From contig CP147778.1 in assembly GCA_037305845.1 (NCBI GenBank), forward strand, positions 1,568,001 to 1,632,000: DNA of 64,000 bases. Direction: 5' to 3'. The first letter of the stretch is position 1. Each line of letters opens with the position of its first letter. Shown here one piece after another: positions 30,107 to 63,872 of the stretch. The position numbers were made by a program, and so were the translations under genes. Source of the DNA: Candidatus Freyarchaeum deiterrae. GTDB lineage: Archaea; Asgardarchaeota; Jordiarchaeia; Jordiarchaeales; Jordiarchaeaceae. The notes beneath the pieces were generated by a model. The model did not search any database and was not told the DNA's origin. It saw only the letters and a list, made by a program, of their open reading frames with translations.

Positions 30107-30205
30107 TGGCGCAGGGAGAGGGATTCGAACCCCCGCATCCCTTACGGGATACTGGCTCTCAAGGCCTACGCTTGAAGGAGATTCCTCATTCAATCAGCGC
30201 CGTTT
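30107..30205 (-). repeat. att-like partial copy of tRNA-Ser(UGA): 3' ~99 nt including the 29/30 intron
   Basis: Direct repeat of 50246-50344 with 8 mismatches; lacks the 5' acceptor and D-stem strands. Confidence 0.9.
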
Positions 30206-30390
30206 CCAGACACCTTTCCAGTGGATCCATAAAGATAGGGTTACATGAGGGGGTGTTCTAAAACTCAATCCTCCGGAAGCCTAGTACCTTAGCTTCGTTT
30301 TCTTTTTTTGAAATTAATTTAAATATAAGTTTAAAAATTTTTTAAAAAACCTTAAATATCCCATAAACAAAATCTTTATACATTGAATGA

Positions 30391-50245: not shown

Positions 50246-50383
50246 TGGCGCACGGAGAGGGATTTGAACCCCCGCATCCCGCAAGGGATACTGGCTCTCA
50301 AGGCCTACGCTTGAAAGAGATACCTCATTCAACCAGCGCCGTTTGGTGGCACATTTCATGTGCTTCCGCTTGGCTATCCGTGC
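50246..50383 (-). tRNA. tRNA-Ser(UGA) with two introns (50344-50363 in the D-loop; 50305-50333 at 29/30), encoded CCA
   Basis: Spliced: GCACGGA TA GCC AAGCGGAAAAC GGC G CTGGC CTTGAGA GCCAG T ATCCC TTGC GGGAT GC GGGGG TTCAAAT CCCTC TCCGTGC G CCA. Confidence 0.9.
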
Positions 50384-63416: not shown

Positions 63417-63534
63417 AGAAAAAATAATATATAATGGGAAAACTTTTAAAAAAACACGACCATTCTCCTTTAGAAAATCTAATAAAAATTTTTGTCTACA
63501 AATGAGCCCCAAAGTGTAATGTGGTATTAAAGTT

Positions 63535-63720
63535 GCGGGGATTTCCAAGTGGTCAAAGCCTGACGGGTGGCCAGAGGAGGCAGACAGGAATCAAATCCCT
63601 GGCCGAGGCTCAGGACCTGCTGGCGCAGAGGCTCTCTGAAAGCTAGAGCCGCGAAAGCCTTCGCGTGTTCGAATAGAAGCATCATAAAGATGCTCCTCGA
63701 GTGTCACGCTCCCCGCACCA
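63535..63720 (+). tRNA. tRNA-Leu(CAG) with four introns: 63557-63574 (21/22), 63584-63607 (30/31), 63629-63656 (variable arm), 63674-63703 (59/60); encoded CCA
   Basis: Spliced 86 nt: GCGGGGA TT TCC AAGTGGTCAAA GGA G GCAGG CTCAGGA CCTGC T GGC GCAG GCC TTC GCGTG TTCGAAT CACGC TCCCCGC A CCA. Confidence 0.88.
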
Positions 63721-63872
63721 TTTTCTAAATTTTTCAAATTTTAATTCTGAGTACCAATGTTTAGTTTTATGTATTAGAAATACTAATAGAAGGTAATAAG
63801 TTTCATAATATTTATAAGTTAATGGGGTGAATGTTAGTCTAGCTTTGCAAGTTTGTTTTGAGGCTGAAAGGT

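Follow-up and report, generated by a model that had tools for sequence, protein, structure and literature searches.

A four-intron tRNA-Leu(CAG) gene in the Asgard archaeon Candidatus Freyarchaeum deiterrae

The window, a 64,000-nt stretch of the genome of Candidatus Freyarchaeum deiterrae, carries a real tRNA-Leu(CAG) gene that is interrupted by four introns. The gene is an ordinary member of the known, heavily interrupted Asgard tRNA genes and sets no record. It very probably supplies the single functional tRNA-Leu(CAG) of the genome, one precursor presumably being converted by four rounds of EndA and RtcB action into an 86-nt type II tRNA.

Structure of the locus and its spliced product

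The gene occupies positions 63535-63720 on the plus strand of the window (genome C1:1631535-1631720) as a 186-nt precursor body with the CCA encoded, a GC-rich stretch in an AT-rich gap that separates an RNase E/G-DUF402 gene from a short gene downstream. As the preliminary description had proposed, the 186 nt resolve into five exons and introns of 18, 24, 28, and 30 nt at 21/22, 30/31, the variable loop, and 59/60, and removal of these 100 nt leaves 86 nt. Exon 1 (63535-63556, nucleotides 1-21) holds the 5' acceptor strand, the 5' D stem, and the D loop, and is followed by intron 1 (63557-63574). Exon 2 (63575-63583, nucleotides 22-30) has the 9 nt ascribed to it earlier and precedes intron 2 (63584-63607). 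Exon 3 (63608-63628, nucleotides 31-47d) contains the CAG anticodon at 63611-63613 and A47c/G47d at 63627-63628, and intron 3 (63629-63656) lies in the variable-arm loop at 47d/47e. Exon 4 (63657-63673) covers nucleotides 47e-59 and is separated by intron 4 (63674-63703) from exon 5 (63704-63720, nucleotides 60-76), which includes the discriminator A73 and, also as described earlier, an encoded CCA. All these elements lie on the plus strand. The five exons are collinear within the 186 nt and join into a cloverleaf, as in a multi-intron tRNA gene, and with the exon order intact the locus does not have a split or permuted tRNA layout. Parses of the locus with two or three introns left stems broken.

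The junctions were assigned by the rule that the cut separates the second and third nucleotides of each 3-nt bulge. When the registers from -3 to +3 nt were scanned, the best BHB for every intron was the one given above. A BHB or relaxed BHB motif with flanking helices was found at all four junctions, and the strict canonical form with 4/4 central pairs at only introns 1 and 4. Intron 1 has the central helix GGTC/GGCC (4/4) with an intron helix of 4 bp and an exon helix of 1 bp (HBh' class), and intron 4 has a canonical hBHBh' motif (TTCG/CGAG, 4/4) in which the T stem is the exon helix. Introns 2 (AGGC/GCCG, 3/4; intron helix 4 bp, exon helix 2 bp) and 3 (GCGC/GCGA, 3/4; intron helix 6 bp) are of the relaxed type, each with a purine-purine mismatch (A.G and G.A, respectively) at the exon-proximal central pair and the other three central pairs formed. 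The earlier term "BHB-type" is thus strictly apt for introns 1 and 4, whereas introns 2 and 3 are better described as relaxed. Shifting intron 3 to 63630-63657 gave an equal ARAGORN score, but with one central pair and a broken variable stem, and this register was rejected.

The spliced product was called by ARAGORN as tRNA-Leu(cag) with a score of 114.6 and 20 of 21 stem pairs formed, in agreement with the well-formed 86-nt type II tRNA ending in CCA that had been predicted. It has the CAG anticodon and a 3-bp variable stem with a GCAG loop, and all the features of an archaeal type II tRNA-Leu are present, namely a Leu anticodon, a long variable arm, A73, A47c, and G47d. A73 and A47c/G47d are the determinants recognized by archaeal LeuRS (PMC4005665). 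By contrast, the unspliced locus gave no ARAGORN call and no Rfam/Infernal match, which bears out the earlier warning that standard scanners may miss the gene.

A parse with four free gaps makes a tRNA-like result easier to reach, and the locus could in principle be a chance parse or an assembly artefact. We give this reading practically no credence. A spliced profile aligner, trained on 19 other tRNAs of the same genome and supplied only with the anticodon and the type II arm, returned the same four introns at the locus. In a single-pass test, the profile score was 52.2 for the real locus, compared with a maximum of 35.9 and a mean of 12.1 for 300 dinucleotide shuffles. None of the 300 shuffles reached an ARAGORN score of 100 or approached the score of the real locus. 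The stem count from the single pass did not separate the two (17 for the real and 17 for the shuffled sequence), a consequence of the suboptimal parse that this pass gave for the real locus. Furthermore, the same architecture is present in four independently assembled genomes, and these orthologues already refute an artefact.

Downstream of the gene, a T-rich flank (63721-63745, plus strand) is a possible archaeal terminator, judged from composition alone. A bacterial promoter scan, which is of a type unsuited to archaea, detected nothing beyond chance. A GGT at window positions 63523-63525, roughly 10-12 nt upstream of the mature 5' end, is shared by all five orthologous leaders, which otherwise diverge.

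Conservation in relatives and the tRNA set of the genome

The tRNA-Leu(CAG) gene with the same four introns and the same neighbours was found in four of five congeneric genomes. Identity to these four was 93-94% in exons, 76-82% in introns, and 22-64% in the 45 nt upstream, and exon 2 was invariant across the five genomes. Every central-helix pair formed here also pairs in the four congeners (e.g., G-C to G-T, T-G to T-A, and C-G to T-A), including all those of intron 1; the pairs were retained through one-sided changes and one double change, and double changes are also present in the acceptor and T stems. The mismatch of intron 2 is A.G here and A.A in the congeners, and the G.A mismatch of intron 3 is common to all five genomes. 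Since five genomes are few and not independent, we take this conservation as support for the predicted structure and not as statistical proof. The locus had no match in the fifth congener, a 220-contig draft (G005). Among more distant Asgard genomes, Leu(CAG) genes with the same exons have only the variable-loop intron (G018) or no intron (G051), and the predicted mature sequence therefore occurs in nature. The variable-loop position is used by these distant Leu(CAG) genes and also by Leu(GAG) and Leu(TAG) of the genome under study. The Leu(CAG) gene of another genome (G009) has an apparent third intron of 13 nt at 56/57 in an uncurated parse.

A scan of the whole genome, in which four parses were fixed by hand, recovered one gene for each of the 46 standard archaeal anticodons and a total of 110 introns. 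Three genes have no intron, 7 have a single one, and 15, 12, and 8 genes have two, three, and four, respectively, while one gene has five; those with four are Cys(GCA), Arg(TCT), Ala(GGC), Phe(GAA), Leu(CAG), Ile2(CAT), Leu(GAG), and His(GTG). The search for another Leu(CAG) gene that had been advised returned none, and the gene at C1:1631535 fills the Leu(CAG) slot of the set. ARAGORN placed a further Leu(CAG) at C1:1647848, but that gene is in fact a three-intron Ser(CGA). CTG codons are common, with 11,704 in long open frames. Central helices are imperfect in 34 of the 110 introns, those of sole decoders included; 30 of the 110 have 3/4 central pairs, with the mismatch mostly at the exon-proximal position and mostly G.A.

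We consider it very improbable that the gene is decaying or silent, with its inserts incompletely spliced and CUG read by tRNA-Leu(UAG). By general wobble rules, tRNA-Leu(UAG) might also read CUG, and given this the Leu(CAG) gene might not be essential. Decay would fit the two relaxed junctions, the absence of the gene from the published annotation, and the missing match in the fifth congener. However, the exons and the pairing are conserved in five genomes while the flanks diverge, the stems show double changes, the LeuRS identity elements are intact, helices as imperfect as these occur in sole decoders, and the genome that lacks a match is a draft in many contigs.

Splicing enzymes and the order of intron removal

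The genome encodes two EndA subunits and RtcB. The alpha subunit of EndA (211 amino acids) best matched the Aeropyrum-type chains 3P1Z_B/3AJV_B (E 8e-43) and contains the loop GQPLGIRKP and the Tyr/His/Lys triad motifs; with its L1/CSL loop it is of the broad-specificity kind. An EndA of this type, reported for Asgard archaea, cuts non-canonical and relaxed introns by means of its specificity loop (PMC5829648). The second subunit (198 amino acids) is without the catalytic His motif and is probably structural, and its sequence is consistent with an (alpha-beta)2 arrangement. On the same strand, about 300 nt separate the catalytic EndA gene from the four-intron tRNA-His(GTG) gene downstream of it (L031; G000:C1:1920679-1921790, G000 being the genome under study).

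For the Leu(CAG) RNA, we infer the following course. The gene would be transcribed as a single precursor, in which the last nucleotides of each hairpin intron would pair with the exon just upstream to form the BHB or relaxed motif. The (alpha-beta)2 EndA with the L1/Crenarchaea-specific loop would cleave each 3-nt bulge between its second and third nucleotides, RtcB would join the exons, and four such rounds would give the 86-nt type II tRNA. Intron 3 is located immediately after G47d, so that the variable arm would form only once this intron has been removed, and LeuRS would then recognize the mature tRNA through A73 and A47c/G47d. Four introns are also present in the only genes found for His, Cys, Phe, and Ile2, and splicing in four rounds must therefore work in the cell. 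Against the proposed course, two of the four junctions have a mismatched central helix, and the relaxed BHB class often arises by chance (bioRxiv 10.64898/2026.10.13.758758).

The preliminary description had regarded ordered splicing as plausible from the 9-nt length of exon 2. The four central helices occupy non-overlapping nucleotides, each confined to its own intron and flanking exon, and are unchanged with or without removal of the neighbouring introns; no order is therefore forced, and no junction motif of Leu(CAG) depends on removal of a neighbour, as obligately ordered (nested) splicing would entail. What is left of the proposal is at most a folding preference. In the full precursor, the cost of forming each motif calculated with ViennaRNA was 1.6 kcal/mol for intron 4, 2.2 for intron 3, 4.9 for intron 1, and 5.4 for intron 2, decreasing to 2-3 kcal/mol as other introns leave. 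The minimum-energy fold of the precursor differs from the fold with four BHB motifs, and forcing all four costs 13.3 kcal/mol, a point against the course proposed above. These folding energies, from models of a type that treats BHB motifs poorly, suggest that introns 4 and 3 would be removed first, followed by introns 2 and 1, without the order being obligatory.

An obligatory order imposed by the short exon 2 on the same gene is unlikely, even if it deserves more weight than decay of the gene. G23-G24 of exon 2 are claimed by both the D stem and the exon helix of intron 2; the cost of the first BHB decreases from 4.9 to 2.8 kcal/mol after loss of intron 2, and that of the second from 5.4 to 2.2-2.4 kcal/mol after loss of intron 3 or 1. 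In addition, ordered removal has been demonstrated experimentally for three-intron tRNAs of Cyanidioschyzon (PMC3728597). Against this stand the central helices, which are identical whether or not the neighbours are present, and the scarcity of neighbour-dependent introns in the genome, where there are only three, in Ala(GGC), iMet, and Pro(GGG). We thus prefer splicing in four rounds without a fixed order. The precursor, in which two of the junctions are strict and two relaxed and one intron adjoins the LeuRS identity bases, is for these reasons a convenient substrate for testing Asgard EndA on several relaxed introns.

The five-intron gene of the genome, Pro(GGG) (L033; G000:C1:1798836-1799053), has introns at 15/16, 24/25, 25/26, 37/38, and 59/60, and the published table gives three. 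An exon of a single nucleotide (T25) separates two of its hairpin introns, and its second junction requires prior removal of the first intron; the layout is kept in three congeners.

Published record, intron origin, and other tRNA genes

The genome under study is the complete Freyarchaeia (Asgard) genome of Valentin-Alvarado et al. 2024, who reported introns in 92-95% of tRNA genes (PMC11291895). The tRNA coordinates in their Supplementary Data 4 coincide with tRNAs of the genome under study. This table already records genes with four introns, namely Arg(TCT), Ile2(CAT), and Leu(GAG) here and some tRNA genes in Atabeyarchaeia, and has neither a Leu(CAG) row for the genome nor a row at the position of the locus. 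Four introns in one tRNA are accordingly no novelty, even within this genome. The published Leu(GAG) shares three of the four intron positions with Leu(CAG) (21/22, the variable loop, and 59/60). The published tRNA table comprises 37 standard tRNAs and 76 introns (last column summed), compared with 46 and 110 here. Nine tRNA genes are absent from Supplementary Data 4: Pro(TGG) (1501840-), Ala(GGC) (1547141), Phe(GAA) (1547648), Leu(CAG) (1631535), Ser(CGA) (1647848), Ser(GCT) (1690305-), iMet (about 1729306), Glu(TTC) (1790195-), and His(GTG) (about 1921600). Two others are typed differently there, "Ser AGA" at 1326639 being Cys(GCA) with four introns and "Met CAT" at 1545739 being Glu(CTC). 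What is new is small: with Leu(CAG) and the eight other genes, the tRNA set of this published reference genome becomes complete. The annotation gap closes once heavy interruption is allowed for, and the known maximum of introns is not raised.

The limit of three introns per archaeal tRNA named in the preliminary description is the classical figure, given for Thermoproteales, e.g., tRNA-Glu(UUC) of Pyrobaculum calidifontis (Kanai 2015, PMC4390854), but it is outdated, since genes with four and five have been published (PMC11291895; bioRxiv 10.64898/2026.10.13.758758). The Thermoproteales introns resemble those of Leu(CAG) in being short, BHB-type, non-canonically positioned, and removed by EndA; the difference is the lineage and the number, at most three per gene compared with four here. 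Several BHB introns per tRNA gene are also present in Cyanidioschyzon merolae, but in a eukaryotic nucleus, with a maximum of three and with some genes permuted (Soma et al. 2013, PMC3728597). The Asgard tRNA intron census of Goswami, Ghosh, and Sinha (preprint, October 2026, bioRxiv 10.64898/2026.10.13.758758), which covers the same families as the gene described here, reports a mean of 2.2 inserts per gene, a maximum of five, BHB enrichment, and repeated gains. The census is restricted to genes detected by tRNAscan-SE, and Leu(CAG) may lie outside it; its authors note that none of their new Asgard inserts has yet been demonstrated as spliced.

The same census names intron arrival as the central open problem. 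In our genome, intron 4 of Leu(CAG) shares 33-57% identity with the 22 other 59/60 introns, whereas it is 70-73% identical to the 59/60 intron of the same length (30 nt) in Leu(TAG) of four congeners, with near-identical flanking exons. Leu(TAG) of one congener (G002) has no 59/60 intron, and that of the genome under study has a diverged one. Elsewhere in the genome, none of the four introns has a close copy (the best match was 73%, and BLAST also returned none), and intron matches of 70% are common by chance (bioRxiv 10.64898/2026.10.13.758758). The likeness of intron 4, which could also be due to chance, would be explained equally by conversion between isoacceptors or by descent from a duplicated gene, and we treat it only as a lead. 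A match of ~30 nt and 90% to intron 4 in another genome (G007) lies inside an open reading frame with no tRNA and was treated as chance. We advance only tentatively, as something short of probable, the broader reading that Leu(CAG) is one of a class of genes that tRNAscan-SE misses because of their heavy interruption (9 of 46 genes untabulated), and that its introns record copying between tRNA sites. If gene conversion is true, it would be one concrete route of intron arrival.

Several other tRNA genes showed features of their own. In Phe(GAA) (L034:648-842, L041-L044), the 30/31 and 53/54 introns are near-copies (83-97% in four of five genomes) that share genome-specific changes, a pattern that conversion inside a single gene would produce. 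In four of five cases, the two resemble each other more closely within a genome than across genomes. Only the genome under study has a 59/60 intron in Phe(GAA), which is cleanly absent from four congeners. Acceptor nucleotides 1-7 are copied in the 5' leaders of Phe(GAA) (L034:600-860), iMet (G000:C1:1729280-1729320), and Thr(CGT) (G000:C1:1545400-1545420), the three genes with a first intron at 8/9, 9/10, or 10/11. The match is 7/7 in Phe and iMet, has one extra base in Thr, and is at most 5/7 in the other 43 genes, with no such copy in Leu(CAG); in Phe(GAA) it is invariant in four congeners. With nucleotides 4-7 engaged in the BHB helix, the 3' acceptor strand could be held by the leader copy.

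A second copy of Leu(GAG) (L036; G000:C1:about 1888900-1889092; 89% over 189 nt, four introns) is missing its first seven acceptor-stem bases and is probably a pseudogene. C33 is found in place of the usual U in tRNA-Arg(TCT) (G000:C1:1544068) and tRNA-Gly(TCC) (1548153). Within the window, a diverged intron-bearing 3' copy of tRNA-Ser(TGA) at about 30107-30220 (88% over 112 nt) lies 20 kb away from the intact gene at 50246-50383. Between the copies (30107-50383) is a block of 42% GC with HerA/DUF87, SNF2 helicase, DUF1156, and DUF499 genes, an integrated island that probably serves defence and both ends of which ARAGORN miscalls as Leu(TAG).
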